Positions 1-5,688 of a stretch of 5,688 bases of DNA are shown here, one piece after another. The stretch spans positions 1 to 5,688 of the IMG/VR virus record IMGVR_UViG_2681813269_000003. One strand, written 5' to 3'. Both the position numbers and the translations under genes were made by a program. Under the pieces are notes generated by a model. It was given only the letters and a program-made list of their open reading frames with translations. It was not told the origin of the DNA and made no database searches. Source of the stretch: a virus (taxonomy: Duplodnaviria; Heunggongvirae; Uroviricota; Caudoviricetes). Numbering within the stretch: position 1 is the first letter of the stretch; the number at the start of each line of letters is the position of its first letter.

Positions 1-22
1 TCCTGTGCCGTTTTTCAGGTAT

Positions 23-44
23 AAAAAAACCCGCATAAAGCGGG
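23..44 (-). terminator. Rho-independent terminator downstream of Q (tR'-like)
   Basis: All-GC 5-bp stem cccgc (30-34) / gcggg (40-44) with 5-nt loop ataaa. On the minus strand it is followed directly by a run of 7 U (plus-strand A-run 23-29). It lies about 80 nt downstream of the Q stop codon at 124-126. Confidence 0.5.
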
Positions 45-123
45 CTCTTTCAAATGTCCATGTCTGCTATTCGCCTCGCGGTACAGCTTTGCGAAGCGTA
101 CAAGAATTGAAGCAGTTTTTACG

Positions 124-678
124 TCAAAAAGCAATAACTTTTTTCTCTATACCAAAAGCCATAACCATTGGTTTGTACAAAATAAATTCTGCCACCTTTA
201 GCCAATGCTCAATGCGTCTTTCACAGGTTCTTAAACTCCATTTCGGGTGTGCATCATTCAGCAGTTCAGCCATTTTGCGTTTGGTCATCCCCCGCCCCTC
301 ATACCGTTGCCGAAGGACGCTAATCAATCCTGGATGCTCTGCCAGCACCTCACTTATGACCCGATCAATACATAACGCCTCTGCATCAGTACAATGCGCC
401 AGCCAGCTCTTTTGCTTACCGTTAATCATATCCCGCAAAAAAGCCTCAAGTTCAGACTTGTTCAGACCTGCTTTTTTCATCCTCCGGAGCGCCTCGTTAA
501 TTGCCGTTTTTGTCAGCTTTTTAGAGGTCAACATCAGGTTAAACATATTCCCCGTCTTACCGCCACCAATATACGACCAGCGCCCCCACATACGTAGTTT
601 TCCCTGAATCCAGACACTTTCCAGCGTGGTGAGACGAAGGTGTTCTCCGCTTTTTCCTGTATTCGTTGGGTAAATCAT
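124..678 (-). CDS. Phage late-gene antitermination protein Q (Q82/QuuD-type, Phage_antitermQ-like)
   Basis: 184-aa ORF starting at the ATG at 676-678, preceded by SD GGAGGGA (revcomp of 685-691); the ATG overlaps the upstream gene's TGA as ATGA. N-terminal region carries a W-G-x-W motif (LRMWGRW) as I recall from QuuD-type Q proteins; C-terminus (MTKRKMAELLNDAHPKWSLRTCERRIEHWL) looks like a sigma region-4-type HTH. Position after the nin-like genes and before a terminator matches lambdoid Q. The track's longer 224-aa start at 798 is rejected because it overlaps the upstream gene and lacks an RBS. Confidence 0.6.
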   Translation of the reverse strand: MIYPTNTGKSGEHLRLTTLESVWIQGKLRMWGRWSYIGGGKTGNMFNLMLTSKKLTKTAINEALRRMKKAGLNKSELEAFLRDMINGKQKSWLAHCTDAEALCIDRVISEVLAEHPGLISVLRQRYEGRGMTKRKMAELLNDAHPKWSLRTCERRIEHWLKVAEFILYKPMVMAFGIEKKVIAF

Positions 679-965
679 AAATATCCCTCCTTTCTCCAGA
701 TTTCTTGTGTGCGAAAAACACCTTCTGCATGCATCAGGCGTAATTCTTCTTTGGTGTAATCGCTGGTTTTTACCCGCCCGTCGATTAAATCGTGGCACGA
801 GCTACAGGCAATCGCTGCCTGCATATCGTGTGGCTTTATCGCTGTTCCGCACGTTCCCGCCAGTCGGTAATGCGCCAGCACAGACGTTTCCGGATCGTGA
901 TTGCAGTAGCCAGGAATTCTGACGGTGCACATCTGCCCCCGCGCCGCTTTACGTAAATCCACCAT
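675..965 (-). CDS. DUF1364 family protein (YbcO-like putative nuclease, nin region)
   Basis: 96-aa ORF, ATG at 963-965 with SD GGAG about 10 nt upstream. Conserved pattern DLRKAARG..C.VRIPG.CN..PETSVLAH.RL.G.CG...KP.D..A.IACS.CHD.ID.R matches my recollection of E. coli DLP12 YbcO (also 96 aa). Its start overlaps the upstream stop (TAATG) and its stop overlaps the Q start (ATGA). Confidence 0.75.
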   Translation of the reverse strand: MVDLRKAARGQMCTVRIPGYCNHDPETSVLAHYRLAGTCGTAIKPHDMQAAIACSSCHDLIDGRVKTSDYTKEELRLMHAEGVFRTQEIWRKEGYL

Positions 966-1564
966 TACGCAAACTCCAGCAGCTGCGCGGCCACATTTTC
1001 GACTTGTTCCGGAGAGGAAAATTTACGGAACAGAATCCAGTTCCACAGCACATTCAGAACAGATTTATAAACCTGCTGAAACTCGGTTTCGTCCATATTC
1101 GCAAAAGCGATGGATTTTGCCCGACGCCCGCGGCTACCGTCCGGATAAAAATGTTCGGTGTAAAATCCAGCCTGAATGGTTACCCACTCGCGAAAAGCCT
1201 CAAACGACTTTAGCAATGCCGTATCCCGGGTTCTGCGTGTCGCAACTGTATTCAGATATTGCTCTGCGGCTTCGCTCAGAGCTGGCGTATGTTCCCGACC
1301 TACTGATTCGCACAGGTAATCAACGAAACCAGACAGCAGTTCTCGTTCGCGAGGCGTGATCGCCCCACCGACCGGAGTCCAGTAATCGAAACCCAGTTGC
1401 AGGAGTTTGAAAAAACGCTTGTGGAATGCGTAGTTACACACACGCTTAAAGTCTGCGTGTATCCACTCACCTATTTTGATTTGATGCAGAAAATCGCAAC
1501 TCTCCGGCGTCGCCGGGAGAAGTAATCCGGAAGAGGTTTGTTTGACCAGTTGTATATGTGCCAT
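965..1564 (-). CDS. Phage nin-region hypothetical protein (DUF1367-like, tentative)
   Basis: 199-aa ORF from the ATG at 1562-1564 (MAHIQLVKQ...), with SD GGAGA 6 nt upstream. The track's longer form begins at a TTG at 1604-1606 that overlaps the upstream stop and is not favoured. Translationally coupled to the downstream DUF1364 gene. Family name is from memory of gene neighbourhoods, not a verified match. Confidence 0.6.
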   Translation of the reverse strand: MAHIQLVKQTSSGLLLPATPESCDFLHQIKIGEWIHADFKRVCNYAFHKRFFKLLQLGFDYWTPVGGAITPRERELLSGFVDYLCESVGREHTPALSEAAEQYLNTVATRRTRDTALLKSFEAFREWVTIQAGFYTEHFYPDGSRGRRAKSIAFANMDETEFQQVYKSVLNVLWNWILFRKFSSPEQVENVAAQLLEFA

Positions 1565-1602
1565 CGGCTTTCTCCGGTGGCACGGTGTTACACAGCAGGA
1601 GT

Positions 1603-1890
1603 TCAATCCTGCTCAAGATTGTAGATGAGTTTATTCTTCAGCAAAAGCAGAAAACCAGCCTTAAAACCAATCTCTTTCAAAACCCGTAATGATGTGACAA
1701 ATTCGTCCTCACGCAAAATAAAACCGTCCGTCAGAAGTCCATTACAAAAATAAAATAACACAGCACCGCTCTTCCTTTGTTGAGATTGCAAACATCTAAT
1801 GCGGCAATGGCTGACAATCGCTCCATTCTCAACGCGCACAGCATAGAGGCCATTTTCACTAAAAATTTCACGCAATTCTTCGATTTTCAT
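1603..1890 (-). CDS. Hypothetical protein, 95 aa (AT-rich moron; positional equivalent of rem in the Qin prophage)
   Basis: ATG at 1888-1890 with SD GGAAGG 8-9 nt upstream; single clean ORF. Visibly AT-rich relative to flanking genes. Sits between hok and the nin-like genes, where K-12 Qin carries rem, but I cannot verify sequence homology. Confidence 0.5.
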   Translation of the reverse strand: MKIEELREIFSENGLYAVRVENGAIVSHCRIRCLQSQQRKSGAVLFYFCNGLLTDGFILREDEFVTSLRVLKEIGFKAGFLLLLKNKLIYNLEQD

Positions 1891-1971
1891 CTTCAGAATC
1901 CTTCCAGATAAATAGCTCTCCCCTGTTCGGGGTCCATCCCTCTTCTCCCTGCGCGCTACTTAAGTGAGTCG

Positions 1972-1999
1972 ATTCTATCTGCGAAGGTGCGCGAATCAA
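1972..1999 (-). promoter_or_regulatory. Putative sigma70 promoter for the 95-aa ORF and downstream nin/Q genes
   Basis: On the minus strand: -35 TTGATT (plus 1994-1999), 16-nt spacer, -10 TAGAAT (plus 1972-1977). The same hexamer pair occurs in the putative hok promoter. Confidence 0.3.
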
Positions 2000-2016
2000 A
2001 TTCACCGGAAATAAAC

Positions 2017-2064
2017 AACAAAAAACCCGCCGAAACGCTGAGAGATCACAGCGATGGGCGGGTT
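2017..2064 (-). terminator. Putative intrinsic terminator at the 3' end of the hok mRNA
   Basis: 8-bp stem 2023-2030 (aacccgcc) / 2057-2064 (ggcgggtt) followed on the minus strand by a U-rich run (plus A-run 2017-2024). The loop is large (26 nt), so this is only moderately convincing. An additional strong 8-bp GC hairpin lies at 2105-2130, immediately 3' of the hok stop. Confidence 0.4.
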
Positions 2065-2139
2065 AAGTGCGGGTGCGTTGAGGATGCCTGACACATCAGA
2101 GGTGGGCGGGGATGGGATCAGCTCCCCGCCCGGTCACTC

Positions 2140-2295
2140 TTACTTCCTGGATTCGTAGTCTACGAAGACAGCGACCTCCGTCTGGCCGGTTCGGATTCGT
2201 ACCTCACAGAGGTCTTTCCTCGTTACCAGTGCCGTCACTATGACGGTTAAACAGATGACGATCAGGGCGATTAACATCGCCTTTTGCTGCTTCAT
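2140..2295 (-). CDS. hokD: Hok-family type I toxin (HokD/RelF-like small membrane protein)
   Basis: 51-aa ORF MKQQKAMLIALIVICLTVIVTALVTRKDLCEVRIRTGQTEVAVFVDYESRK, matching my recollection of E. coli HokD/RelF except for the last few residues. ATG at 2293-2295 with SD AAGGAG 9 nt upstream. Confidence 0.85.
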   Translation of the reverse strand: MKQQKAMLIALIVICLTVIVTALVTRKDLCEVRIRTGQTEVAVFVDYESRK

Positions 2296-2352
2296 AGCCT
2301 GCTTCTCCTTGCCTTTCGGCATGTAAGAGGCTAACCTACATGTGCAAAGCAT
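2140..2352 (-). CDS. mok: Mok-like leader ORF (in-frame N-terminal extension of hok, modulator of killing)
   Basis: In-frame ATG at 2350-2352 with its own SD GAGG about 8 nt upstream gives a 70-aa product MLCTCRLASYMPKGKEKQAM + Hok. This resembles my recollection of K-12 MokC (ML.TCR...KEK.AMKQ..., 69 aa, in frame with HokC). Confidence 0.55.
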   Translation of the reverse strand: MLCTCRLASYMPKGKEKQAMKQQKAMLIALIVICLTVIVTALVTRKDLCEVRIRTGQTEVAVFVDYESRK

Positions 2353-2471
2353 GAAATTGGCCTCAGATTAATGTTAAGCGTCTTGCCGGACGCGTAATGT
2401 TAACTGGGGCTTTTCTCTATCTGCCTTTTGGTGTTCATGCCTGAAGCAGATAGCCTCAAGCACCCGCAGTC

Positions 2472-2501
2472 ATTCTACTTACCTCGCCAATATGAAATCA
2501 A
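2472..2501 (-). promoter_or_regulatory. Putative hok/mok mRNA promoter
   Basis: On the minus strand: -35 TTGATT (plus 2496-2501), 18-nt spacer, -10 TAGAAT (plus 2472-2477). The predicted start near 2466 coincides with the 5' element that is complementary to the mRNA 3' end (2454-2467 versus 2069-2083). Confidence 0.4.
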
Positions 2502-2522
2502 TCAGAAAGGTGCCCCATAAAA

Positions 2523-3209
2523 TCACTCCTTCTCTTCTTTACCGTAGTGGAGTTGACCAATTTTGATAAGAGGGCGTCCCTGAGATTTGCGGTGTAGATT
2601 GGTATCGCGCAGAGAATACACACAGCCACAATATTCCTGCTGATAGAATTTTTCGCGCTTGCTGATTTCAATCATACGGGACGAGCCGCCCTGCTTGCGC
2701 CAGTTATAATCCCAGTACACCATGCCCGGATAATGCGCGACGGCTCGCCGCCCACAGTCGTTAACCTGCTGCATATTTTTCCAGCGTGAAATGCCCAGTG
2801 AACTGCTGATCACACTGAAACCATTTTCAGCGGCGTACAGCGCTGTCCGCTCAAAACGCATGTCAAAACACATGGTGCAACGGATCCCTCGTTCGGGCTC
2901 CCATTCCATTCCTTTGGCTCGTTCAAACCAGTTGTCTGTGTCGTAATCAGCATCAATAAACGGCACGCCGTGTTGTTCAGCAAAGCGAATATTCTCATCC
3001 TTACGAATTAAATACTCTTTCTGAGGATGAATGTTCGGGTTGTAGAAAAAGATGGTGTAGTCGATTCCCGAGGCCTGAAGCGCCTCCATCACCTCACCGG
3101 AACATGGAGCACAGCAAGAGTGCAGTAGTAGTTTGTTTGCCCCGTTTGGGAGCTCCAATTTGGGCCGTTTGAAATCAGCAACTGTCATAAATATGTTTAT
3201 TGGGGTCAT
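2523..3209 (-). CDS. queH: QueH-like epoxyqueuosine reductase (DUF208 family)
   Basis: 228-aa ORF with the Cys-rich motifs I associate with QueH: [12 protein letters not shown] near the N-terminus, [11 protein letters not shown] centrally, and [12 protein letters not shown] near the C-terminus. Start codon is uncertain: ATG at 3207-3209 or the ATG at 3186-3188, neither with a good SD. Confidence 0.7.
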
Positions 3210-3356
3210 AAAAATATCAAAGAGTGTAGCATTAGAACGGGGCTATCGGAAACAGATGTGTGACTGCTCCCCGCCCTTTCGGGTGGTCTCCTGATGATTT
3301 GAGGGTGCAGAAATCCCTCCGGTTAAGGATTAAATTTTTAACAGTGCTAAATTTAA

Positions 3357-3770
3357 TTATTCAGTTCTGGATTTTGTCGCCCTGCGTATCCGCGCTTTCG
3401 CGTTACGCTCAATCTGTATCAGCTTTTCTATATTTCTCCGCCTTTCCTGTTCCTCCTGGCGCAATAGCCTTACATCATCTGCCAGTCTGGTTTCTCTTTT
3501 TGCCACAGAGAGCATCCAGTCAAACGGCTCCACAACCGCACCGCAGATTTTACAGCGGACCTGACGCTCTTTTTCGTCAACCCGTACAGAGGCGTGATGG
3601 CAATATGGTCTTTCCGATGGCTCATAAAGAAAATTAACCTGATTACGAGGGTCATCCTCTTTTACCGGAAATAAAACGATATTGCTTAACTCATCTTGGT
3701 GATGCTGCCAACTTACTGATTTAGTGTATGAGAATGCCAGCGGTAATTGAAGCCTGATAGCTAATTTCAT
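3357..3770 (-). CDS. Hypothetical phage protein with putative zinc ribbon (C-H-H ... C-x-x-C) and basic coiled-coil C-terminus
   Basis: 137-aa ORF with ATG at 3768-3770 immediately after the upstream stop (TGAATG) and a strong SD AGGAGG about 11 nt upstream. Contains YCHH...(15 aa)...CKICG, followed by a Glu/Arg-rich tail (LLRQEEQERRRNIEKLIQIERNAKARIRR). Confidence 0.55.
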   Translation of the reverse strand: MKLAIRLQLPLAFSYTKSVSWQHHQDELSNIVLFPVKEDDPRNQVNFLYEPSERPYCHHASVRVDEKERQVRCKICGAVVEPFDWMLSVAKRETRLADDVRLLRQEEQERRRNIEKLIQIERNAKARIRRATKSRTE

Positions 3771-4193
3771 TCACAGTATCGCCTCCTGAAAATTACCCTG
3801 ATAGAAAGCCAGTACACGCTGCATAGCTTCGCTCTTCCGGCACTCGCGACAGATTATATTCAGGCGCCTGTCGTAGCGGCGTATTTCTCCGTCAGGTAAT
3901 GACCAGATAAGGTCCGGATCAACAACAACCGGTTTCCTCACCTTTACTCTCGAGAGTTTTTTGCGGGCGCTTTGCCAGTCCTTGCGAGCCTGTTCAGACG
4001 GGAATAAGCCGTAGCCAGAATTATATACATCACCACTTGCGACCAGTTCTATGCATAAGCGACCGACAGACGCACGACTGATACCTGTTTCATCTGACAA
4101 CTGCCGAATCGTGACCCGACCGTCCTGATGCACGAGTTCCACAATTCGCGTCTTCAGTTCTTCCCGCTGTTCGGGAGTAAAAGGTTTCGCCAT
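3771..4193 (-). CDS. Hypothetical winged-helix (HTH) DNA-binding phage protein
   Basis: 140-aa ORF with ATG at 4191-4193 and SD GGAGGA (revcomp of 4197-4202). N-terminal segment IVELVHQDGRVTIRQLSDETGISRASVGRLCIELVASGDV has the pattern of a DeoR/MarR-like winged helix. Translationally coupled to the downstream zinc-ribbon ORF. Confidence 0.65.
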   Translation of the reverse strand: MAKPFTPEQREELKTRIVELVHQDGRVTIRQLSDETGISRASVGRLCIELVASGDVYNSGYGLFPSEQARKDWQSARKKLSRVKVRKPVVVDPDLIWSLPDGEIRRYDRRLNIICRECRKSEAMQRVLAFYQGNFQEAIL

Positions 4194-4207
4194 AAATCCT
4201 CCTGAAA

Positions 4208-4954
4208 CTACTTAACAACCCTCGAATGGCTAACATTCGGACGCCAGCTCTCCCAGTTAAAATTCACCCAGCGCCCGCCGTTCATGACCATGCGATCCAT
4301 CACCCGCTCGCCGAGCAATGTTTTCATCACCTCATAGTTCAGGTTTGTCAGCATCCCCACGCTGCGCATCGACGCTGTCCGGCGATCAACAATCTGGTGC
4401 AGCACCACCTGCTCGTTTTTCGTCTCGCGCTGAATGCCAATTTCATCAAGAACCAGCAGATCCACTTCGCACAGCTCCCGCAAAAATTTTTCGCCTGACT
4501 GCCCGTCGTCATAGCTGGCGTGCAGGGCGCTCATAACATCAGCCACGGTAACCACAATCACTGTCTGACCGTCTTTCAGCAGGCGATTCCCGATAGCTGC
4601 CGCTAAGTGATTCTTCCCGGTACCAGGTTTTCCGCTGAACGCAAAATTTGTACACCCGGTCATCAGTTCATCGGCGATGGATTTCGCCTGGCTTAACGCG
4701 TATCGCTGGCCGTCGTTCTGCACCTGGTAATTCGCAAACGAGCATTTACGGTGCAACGGCTGGATGCCTGAGCGATTCAGAATTTTTTCCACCCGCAACT
4801 GGCGATTCAGGCGGTTGATCTCCTCGCTACGTTTCTGGCCTTCAGCAAGTTGCCACTCGCGCCACTCCGCTACCGTTCTGAATGGGGCGGTTACATGTGG
4901 CGGGGTCAGTCGGCGGATGCGTTCCAGAACGCCGCCTGTCGCAATATTTTTCAT
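4208..4954 (-). CDS. DnaC-family replicative helicase loader (phage replication protein, AAA+ ATPase)
   Basis: 248-aa ORF collinear with E. coli DnaC as I recall it (for example NRSGI.PLH..CSF.NY and MLTN.N.E.M..LLGERVMDRM). Walker A FSGKPGTGKNHLAAAI and Walker B DLLVLDEIG are present. ATG at 4952-4954 with a G-rich SD. It diverges from host DnaC, so it is a prophage paralogue. Confidence 0.9.
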   Translation of the reverse strand: MKNIATGGVLERIRRLTPPHVTAPFRTVAEWREWQLAEGQKRSEEINRLNRQLRVEKILNRSGIQPLHRKCSFANYQVQNDGQRYALSQAKSIADELMTGCTNFAFSGKPGTGKNHLAAAIGNRLLKDGQTVIVVTVADVMSALHASYDDGQSGEKFLRELCEVDLLVLDEIGIQRETKNEQVVLHQIVDRRTASMRSVGMLTNLNYEVMKTLLGERVMDRMVMNGGRWVNFNWESWRPNVSHSRVVK

Positions 4955-4960
4955 GGTCCG

Positions 4961-5296
4961 TTACCCCCTGAAGCCTGGCGGGATCGCACTGTCCGGCAAC
5001 GAGACGGTGTTAACCTGTCGGAGCAACGTCTCAGGCCGAACACCTTTCGGCGCGAACAGGCCCTGGTATTCATTGGCGATGCTGTGTCGAATCACCTGCT
5101 CAGGTGTAAAACCCTGCTGACGGAATTTTTCCAGTTCCCGTATCGCCCCGTTAGCGCCCTGCTCCGTTCGAATCGGTTTTCGCAATGCCTGTCTGAACCG
5201 GACCCACTCATGCCAGAGTGTTTCCGGCAACCAATCGGGCAGCTCAATAGCCTCCGGCTCGAATTTTTTAGACGCTCGTTTTTGGCGAGGGGGAGA
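4961..5296 (-). CDS. DnaT-like primosomal protein C-terminal domain (3' segment of a frame-disrupted replication initiator gene)
   Basis: Open frame from the stop at 5297-5299 down to the TAA at 4961-4963. It ends ...RQVNTVSLPDSAIPPGFRG, matching the E. coli DnaT C-terminus (...NTVSEPDSQIPPGFRG) as I recall it; KKFEPEAIELPDW parallels DnaT KFAMYPDWQPDADF. There is no ATG or GTG in this frame before the TTG at 5228-5230, so translation probably continues from upstream segments. Lies immediately upstream of the dnaC-like gene, as in the host dnaT-dnaC operon. Confidence 0.6.
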   Translation of the reverse strand, partial: SPPRQKRASKKFEPEAIELPDWLPETLWHEWVRFRQALRKPIRTEQGANGAIRELEKFRQQGFTPEQVIRHSIANEYQGLFAPKGVRPETLLRQVNTVSLPDSAIPPGFRG

Positions 5297-5308
5297 TCAG
5301 TATTTAGA

Positions 5309-5347
5309 TCTTCCTCTTCCTCTTCCTCTTCCTCTTCCTCTTCCTCT
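5309..5347. repeat. Hexanucleotide tandem repeat (TCTTCC) x 6.5
   Basis: Directly visible: six full tcttcc units plus tct. On the minus strand one frame encodes 12 consecutive Glu (GAG/GAA alternating). Confidence 0.9.
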
Positions 5348-5417
5348 GGTAACGCTTTTTGATCCGTTTGTGTAACGCTGGCAGCGTTACCTTTTCGTTT
5401 CAGTTCGCGTATTTTTG

Positions 5418-5688
5418 TTACTCGCTCGTTTGTAACCGCCCGTTTTTTTTAGAGCTTTTTCCGTTATGACGTTCAAAGTTAGGTAGAGAAAGCCCTCCGT
5501 CATTTTCGACCAGCCATCCAACCTGAATTAACGCATCAGCAAAACCAGACATAAAAGTGATGCGATCTATTGCACTTTTTGTAACGCCGCGAGCGTTACA
5601 ATCTGCATTACCGTCTATCATTTGTTGATCCGCCCATGCCCAGAAGCGAATAACCTGAGGTAGCCTGAGTTTAACGGACACTCCTTCC
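5418..5688 (-). CDS. Replication initiator N-terminal segment (partial; 5' end probably beyond the window edge)
   Basis: Minus-strand frame open from the window edge to the TAA at 5418-5420 (...GVTKSAIDRITFMSGFADALIQVGWLVENDGGLSLPNFERHNGKSSKKNGRLQTSE). The GTG at 5679-5681 has GGAAGGA immediately adjacent with no spacer, so the true start is probably upstream of the window. It ends just after an A8 homopolymer at 5443-5450. Confidence 0.45.
   Translation of the reverse strand, partial: EGVSVKLRLPQVIRFWAWADQQMIDGNADCNARGVTKSAIDRITFMSGFADALIQVGWLVENDGGLSLPNFERHNGKSSKKNGRLQTSE

Follow-up and report, generated by a model that had tools for sequence, protein, structure and literature searches.

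Why should temperate phages of Escherichia coli carry an enzyme for the last step of queuosine (Q) synthesis when their host already has one? The question is raised by a 5,688-nt stretch of Caudoviricetes DNA (positions 1 to 5,688 of IMG/VR record IMGVR_UViG_2681813269_000003, here the window), in which an earlier note, made from the sequence alone, had read a minus-strand open reading frame (ORF) at exactly 2523-3209 (228 aa) as a DUF208/QueH-type epoxyqueuosine reductase. The profile search proposed in that note places the protein in Pfam family PF02677 (QueH) with 220.6 bits against a cut-off of 23.5 bits; the match covers positions 1-174 of the 175-position profile with E 1.9e-65 and is therefore far beyond chance. 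A phmmer search of the PDB matched the Thermotoga maritima QueH chains (7lc5, E 5e-22). The AlphaFold model, computed from 59 aligned sequences, had a mean predicted local distance difference test score of 94.1 and a predicted template modeling (TM) score of 0.90, and the top five Foldseek matches to this model in the PDB were all T. maritima QueH entries (target-normalized TM 0.90-0.92, root-mean-square deviation 1.2-1.9 Å), the next fold being TtuA at E about 3e-5. No NCBIfam model matched the product, although RefSeq names the protein QueH: an identical RefSeq entry already bears the name "epoxyqueuosine reductase QueH", so the enzyme itself is already known. We are close to certain that the window ORF encodes a full-length QueH.

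Six cysteines of the product (C32, C33, C111, C114, C194 and C196) align with the six of T. maritima QueH (C9, C10, one CxxC and one CGC pair). None of them varies in the 59-sequence alignment, and their conservation among informative family representatives is at least 84/86 and reaches 117/117. We take these residues to hold an iron-sulfur (Fe-S) cluster and an extra iron; a C9S mutant is among the T. maritima QueH entries in the PDB, according to its title. Of the cysteine and aspartate ligands that were to be checked, all the cysteines are thus conserved, but the position of T. maritima Asp13, for which a D13N structure has been deposited (9DCO, according to the entry title), is Cys36 in the prophage protein (CCAPC versus CCAPD). 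When this position was tabulated in 150 representatives of 50%-identity clusters and 120 close relatives, cysteine was found in 115 of the 118 informative representatives (~97%) and in 120/120 close relatives, with aspartate in 3 representatives. The crystallized enzyme is therefore the minority type and the prophage QueH has the consensus site, and, as judged from these alignments, Cys36 does not refute membership in the family. Compared with T. maritima QueH (7LC5, 7LC7, 9DEU), the prophage protein shares the profile, the fold (TM 0.92, 1.2 Å), the six cysteines and the pattern CC...CxxC...CGC, but the two are 31% identical, differ at Asp13/Cys36, and are carried by a chromosome and a temperate phage, respectively. 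The change at position 13 might be read as a sign that a QueH-fold enzyme acts here on another substrate, for example a different epoxide or nucleic-acid modification. We consider this very improbable, given that cysteine is the family norm, that many Enterobacterales have, as their one chromosomal QueH, a protein of 77-92% identity to this one, and that neither the neighborhood nor a PADLOC search, which gave no match, suggests another pathway. A role as a defense system was likewise dropped, because no PADLOC family for QueH was found at E values up to 0.01.

The earlier note assigned the gene the whole span 2523-3209. The ORF does exist there, but the upstream in-frame ATG (3209-3207), which gives the 228-aa product, is confined to Escherichia and Shigella phage copies and was rejected as the start because it is missing from chromosomal homologues. 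In a 5´ alignment of phage, chromosomal, and E. albertii/Shigella copies, the second in-frame ATG (3188-3186) is the start that is invariant across homologues, and it is also the RefSeq start (Table 1). The PHROG family that holds the product, phrog_3217, is labeled 'unknown function'. Its profile begins at residue 41, past the CCAPC motif, which suggests that most of the gene calls behind the family were truncated at the N terminus; its label could be changed to QueH.

The gene is frequent. We found queH in 995 of 5426 complete E. coli genomes (~18%), almost always as a single copy and with strains 042 and APEC O1 among the carriers, and on at least 187 IMG/VR viral contigs, the best 80 of which are 99-100% identical. 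An isolated Escherichia phage with a complete deposited genome, HannyBb, carries it at 96.5% identity under the annotation "hypothetical". In a scan of one genome per species, the E. albertii and Shigella flexneri copies were the only ones with the same phage neighbors. Copies that are 77-92% identical occur in Enterobacter, Scandinavium, Kluyvera, Erwinia, Serratia, Pectobacterium, Proteus, Providencia and other genera, where they sit among ordinary chromosomal genes that differ between genera. The closest of these, in Enterobacter hormaechei (locus L007, 5181-5885, 92% amino-acid identity), is directly preceded by a 234-aa Phage_integrase family fragment, a hint that this copy also lies on an integrated element. 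QueH is further encoded on 302 plasmids (99 from Klebsiella, 67 from Escherichia, the remainder from others), 136 of them conjugative. Copies of ~92% identity occur on many conjugative plasmids of Klebsiella and E. coli; on the Klebsiella pneumoniae IncF plasmid NZ_CP040995.1 (locus L166, 7010-7678), the gene lies ~1.2 kb downstream of repA. Given carriage by both plasmids and phages, queH is a recurrent mobile-element cargo in Enterobacteriaceae and not one of phages only.

All 84 phage-context copies examined were intact; "not intact" flags on chromosomal copies are an artifact of fixed-length extraction and do not mark real disruptions. The ratio of nonsynonymous to synonymous substitution rates (dN/dS) was 0.054 against the HannyBb copy, 0.025 against that of E. 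albertii, and 0.025-0.039 against chromosomal copies of Enterobacter, Scandinavium and Kluyvera. Across 20 phage-context alleles, 44 polymorphic codons were synonymous-only and 8 were amino-acid-changing. queH is under strong purifying selection. With no phenotype known for it, a location next to hok in most copies, and QueG already present in E. coli, the gene might still be viewed as a neutral hitch-hiker, kept only by the adjoining hok/sok addiction module inside successful prophages. The dN/dS range of 0.025-0.054, the absence of disruption among the 84 copies, and the independent capture of queH by plasmids make this quite improbable, and hok is common without queH, as in strain CFT073 and phage vB_EcoS-640R1, so the linkage of the two is not obligatory.

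What such selection might act on is suggested by the host enzyme. E. coli cannot make cobamides de novo, and its conversion of epoxyqueuosine (oQ) to Q reportedly depends on cobamide, the finding stated in the title of a 1988 article by Frey and colleagues. QueG, which the earlier note rightly gave as the native last-step enzyme of E. coli, is a cobalamin/[4Fe-4S] enzyme (PMC5175355), and E. coli takes up cobamides via BtuB (PMC11841063). Since queG was present in all 5426 complete E. coli genomes, the prophage QueH is always a second isozyme. The two proteins are predicted to catalyze the same reaction, oQ-tRNA to Q-tRNA, and occur together in every queH-positive E. coli, but they are unrelated in fold and cofactor, and QueG is core (5426/5426) whereas QueH is accessory (995/5426). 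A similar pairing is known from Staphylococcus aureus, which has both the Fe-dependent QueH and the cobalamin-dependent QueG, differently expressed, a redundancy at the last step that has been read as adjustment to cofactor availability (PMC13443448); there, both enzymes belong to the organism's own gene set, whereas in E. coli the second one arrives on prophages or plasmids.

We propose that the prophage QueH, as an Fe-S and cobalamin-independent enzyme, would convert oQ34 to Q34 on tRNA-Asp, tRNA-Asn, tRNA-His and tRNA-Tyr. The gene would be transcribed from the phage early promoter in lytic growth and probably, weakly, from a promoter of its own in the lysogen. Because every E. coli has a QueG that needs imported cobalamin, the most likely benefit is lysogenic conversion, in which Q-tRNA maturation would be freed from B12 supply and BtuB uptake and this advantage would keep the cassette under selection. 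Taken as a whole, the explanation that lysogens possess a functional QueH as a cobalamin-independent backup for QueG seems to us the probable one, albeit by no means a secure one. Its parts differ in strength: that the enzyme is active in E. coli is a prediction we make with good confidence, its expression in the lysogen we would put at even chances, and B12-independence as the selected benefit is a suggestion we would back only with hesitation. That the prophage QueH could influence host Q-tRNA status is a reasonable idea. More speculatively again, mobile QueH could be a widespread "B12-independence" module with which temperate phages and conjugative plasmids shift the tRNA epitranscriptome of QueG-dependent Enterobacteriaceae from oQ to Q when cobalamin or BtuB uptake is lacking. 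If so, this would be the first case in which lysogenic conversion targets the last step of a tRNA modification of the host, and the strong purifying selection on QueH would count as evidence from nature that oQ and Q differ in function.

The boundaries of the mobile unit were defined by comparison with phages and a chromosome. Against vB_EcoS-640R1, which lacks queH and has hok and DUF977, homology breaks at 2484/2485 and 3270/3271, and the segment 2485-3270 is replaced by different small genes; DNA homology to the chromosomal E. hormaechei copy spans 2516-3252. Together with the block in common with HannyBb (Table 1), the unit measures ~745-785 bp, that is, a leader of ~45-60 nt plus the ORF. 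We surveyed neighborhoods in 80 IMG/VR loci, 72 of them informative: a DUF977 gene lies upstream of queH in nearly all 80 (directly adjacent in 54), the Zn-ribbon ORF intervenes in 13 of the 72, and in most loci hok follows at a distance of 174-199 nt. The usual order is DUF977-queH-hokD; the arrangement of the window (2140-4193) is rare, with just 2 complete E. coli genomes covering at least 80% of it. In other phages, and in strains such as CFT073, the slot holds different cargo. The label "moron" given to queH by the earlier note fits insofar as the gene is inserted cargo, probably with its own promoter. Like lambdoid morons and other cargo of the ren-nin region, including the adjacent hok/sok, it is a discrete insertion in a slot with alternative contents. 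It is, however, not a strict moron, because it has no terminator and no compositional contrast (GC content 0.46-0.51 across queH and 0.43-0.53 in the flanks). Its putative promoter is read from sequence conservation.

Neither candidate ATG (3188 or 3209) is preceded by a Shine-Dalgarno (SD) sequence, in agreement with the earlier note, and the closest chromosomal copies (Enterobacter, Kluyvera) likewise have none, while Erwinia copies have GGAG. Upstream of the coding sequence, the element AATGCTACACT is identical in 86/86 phage-context copies although its flanking bases vary. In 13 related copies, GCTACAMT is found at a fixed distance from the coding sequence; the Kluyvera copy has TTTACA-16 nt-TACAAT, copy L020 reads GTGACA-17 nt-TACACT, and the Erwinia copies have a -10-like hexamer at a similar distance. 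Because TACACT (3228-3223) is conserved amid diverged DNA and has promoter-like versions in chromosomal copies, we read it as a candidate -10 box of the native queH promoter that was carried along with the cassette. The chromosomal Enterobacterales proteins are near-identical to that of the phage (E. hormaechei 92%; Scandinavium and Kluyvera 91%; Erwinia, Serratia, Proteus and Providencia 79-86%), and their genes begin at the same start codon, with a -10-like TACAMT at an unchanged distance; the Erwinia copies combine a good -35 with an SD, whereas in the phage copy the -35 is weak, an SD is missing, and the flanking DNA is that of a phage. In the explanation that we favor, a cassette of ~750 bp, comprising the native -10 region and the ORF without a terminator, passed from an Enterobacteriaceae chromosome to lambdoid phages of Escherichia and Shigella, where it now fills the variable slot that separates the DUF977/Ren-like gene from hok/sok in the early-right operon.

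The same features bear on when the gene might act. queH has the orientation of the early-right operon and lies within it, between the replication genes and the antiterminator gene Q; a scan of the coding strand found no terminator-like site in 1900-3800, hence none on either side of queH, and its own promoter is weak at best. All of this would suit a lytic-phase auxiliary, in which QueH is made only from the early-right transcript after induction or infection, completes Q on host tRNAs to the benefit of translation of phage mRNAs rich in NAU/NAC codons, and has no role in the lysogen. We nonetheless judge such an exclusively lytic function unlikely. The -10-like element, a legacy of the chromosomal promoter, does not vary among the 86 phage-context copies, conjugative plasmids and integrase-flanked chromosomal spots also carry queH and have no lytic programme, queH is intact in the prophage of the window even though a replication gene there is disrupted, and the lytic cycle is short for remodeling a stable tRNA pool.

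Several observations weigh against a backup function in lysogens. A sigma-70 consensus scan with a threshold of 9 of 12 positions found no promoter upstream of queH, the candidate matching only 7/12, and with so weak a promoter and no SD, a lysogen could express queH at a very low level. The prophage enzyme has a cysteine in place of the Asp13 that was studied by crystallography. Moreover, we know of no established phenotype that separates oQ-tRNA from Q-tRNA, which makes the selective benefit a conjecture.

The earlier note also considered a link to the 7-deazaguanine chemistry used by some phages against restriction. The substrate of QueH is the epoxide that QueA forms on tRNA-bound preQ1 and, to our knowledge, neither oQ nor Q is known in DNA, oQ being known only in tRNA. 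QueH is indeed a queuosine-pathway enzyme, and many phages modify their DNA with early genes of that pathway (PMC6884629), but no tgt/dpdA and no preQ0-synthesis gene (folE, queC, queD, queE) is annotated in HannyBb or in the complete prophage of a host genome with an identical queH, where hypothetical proteins were not all profile-searched. A 2019 phage survey likewise reports no QueA, QueG or QueH in the viruses analyzed (PMC6884629). Since no annotated que, tgt or dpd genes accompany queH, this link is not supported, and we regard a part for QueH in a DNA-modification pathway as exceedingly improbable. The phage preQ0/G+ clusters, which combine DpdA with FolE, QueC, QueD and QueE, resemble the present case in that a queuosine-pathway gene is carried by a phage; they differ in comprising the early pathway and a DNA transglycosylase without QueA, QueG or QueH (PMC6884629), whereas here the last, tRNA-specific step is carried alone.

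No description of a phage- or prophage-borne QueH was found in the literature searchable here; the E. coli genomics articles among the matches deal only with queG or with gene lists. We regard the finding as a correct annotation-level observation with a testable hypothesis attached, not as a new kind of system. Its value lies in the vehicle and the frequency: a last-step queuosine enzyme is present on temperate phages in ~18% of complete E. coli genomes, and on plasmids as well. That queH is always redundant with the B12-dependent QueG and yet tightly selected is an argument that completing oQ to Q is important in nature, and prophages with queH offer a simple genetic handle on the old question of whether oQ and Q differ functionally. 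The result also corrects two resources, the "unknown function" of PHROG 3217 and the "hypothetical" queH of HannyBb, and qualifies the published statement that the surveyed viruses have no QueH homologues (PMC6884629).

Table 1. Features of the queH region in the window
Feature	Position	Strand	Basis and remarks
DnaC-like helicase loader	4208-4954	-	Part of the lambdoid/Rac-like early-right region
DUF977/Ren-like gene	3771-4193	-	Pfam DUF977, E 1.1e-33; PHROG 142; near-constant upstream flank of the cargo slot
Zn-ribbon-like ORF, 137 aa	3357-3770	-	PHROG 1621, function unknown; weak TFIIB-type zinc-ribbon match below the Pfam cut-off
Minimal mobile queH cassette (block common with phage HannyBb)	2517-3259	-	Pairwise BLAST break-points
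Weak candidate -35, TTCCGA	3246-3251	-	3/6 match, 17 nt upstream of TACACT; read from sequence
Conserved non-coding element AATGCTACACT	3223-3233	-	Near-invariant columns amid diverged upstream DNA; contains TACACT, 3228-3223
queH coding sequence from the conserved start	2523-3188	-	221 aa + stop; RefSeq coding sequence WP_012421537.1 maps to 2523-3188
hok promoter-like site	2472-2501	-	Consensus scan; -35 TTGATT 2501-2496, 18 nt, -10 TAGAAT 2477-2472
hok mRNA leader and sok antisense target region	2290-2465	-	Rfam RF01794, 117 bits (gathering 59), E 4.9e-27, full model 1-157
hokD toxin coding sequence	2140-2295	-	Pfam HOK_GEF, E 9.8e-23; RefSeq hokD of L001 maps here; longer in-frame ORF to 2352

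The genes around queH are all on the same strand and form the early-right region of a lambdoid/Rac-like prophage, in the order DnaC-like loader, DUF977/Ren-like gene, Zn-ribbon ORF, queH, hok, a small PHROG-340 ORF, a DUF1367/NinB-like gene, YbcO, and a DUF1133/Q-like antiterminator. A position between the replication and nin regions, as first described in the earlier note, is thus borne out by the DnaC-like loader upstream and the NinB-like DUF1367 gene downstream. In the genome with an identical queH, the same block lies within a complete prophage (integrase to tail genes) next to ybhA/modC. Downstream, the hok -35 starts ~20 nt past the queH stop codon, so that queH does lie directly upstream of the hok promoter, and the RF01794 match begins at 2465, ~7 nt past the hok -10. 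An Rfam scan of the whole window in E-value mode gave the sok/hok element alone, with no preQ1 or cobalamin riboswitch near queH. In HannyBb, queH and hok are separated by an additional ~370 bp (locus L002, 6466-6837) absent from the window; even the boundary at which the two modules meet varies. On the other side, between the Zn-ribbon ORF and the cassette boundary, a GC-rich stem with a GAAA loop (CCACCC-GAAA-GGGCGG, minus strand) at 3271-3286 is perfect (CCGCCC) in the S. flexneri copy. It belongs to the Zn-ribbon module and not to the queH cassette, and it is not a canonical terminator because no U-run follows it.

Further observations concern the ends of the window and the related prophage L001. 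Just past the left end of the window, L001 has four tRNA genes (Gly, Thr, Arg and Ile; 17102-17412) downstream of the Q-like antiterminator, none of them for a queuosine-bearing tRNA (Asp, Asn, His, Tyr). At the right end, a replication-initiator-like gene (4961-5688, minus strand), an intact coding sequence of 262 aa in L001, is broken in the window by a T8 run in place of T6 (+2) and a 10-nt deletion (indels near 5287/5288 and 5443-5450). These changes could mean that the prophage of the window is defective in replication; alternatively, the homopolymer change could stem from a sequencing error. The prophage seems to be decaying while queH is nevertheless intact. The same gene contains a (TCTTCC)n hexamer repeat at 5309-5347 that encodes poly-Glu and has expanded in frame to 6.5 copies, compared with ~3.5 in L001.

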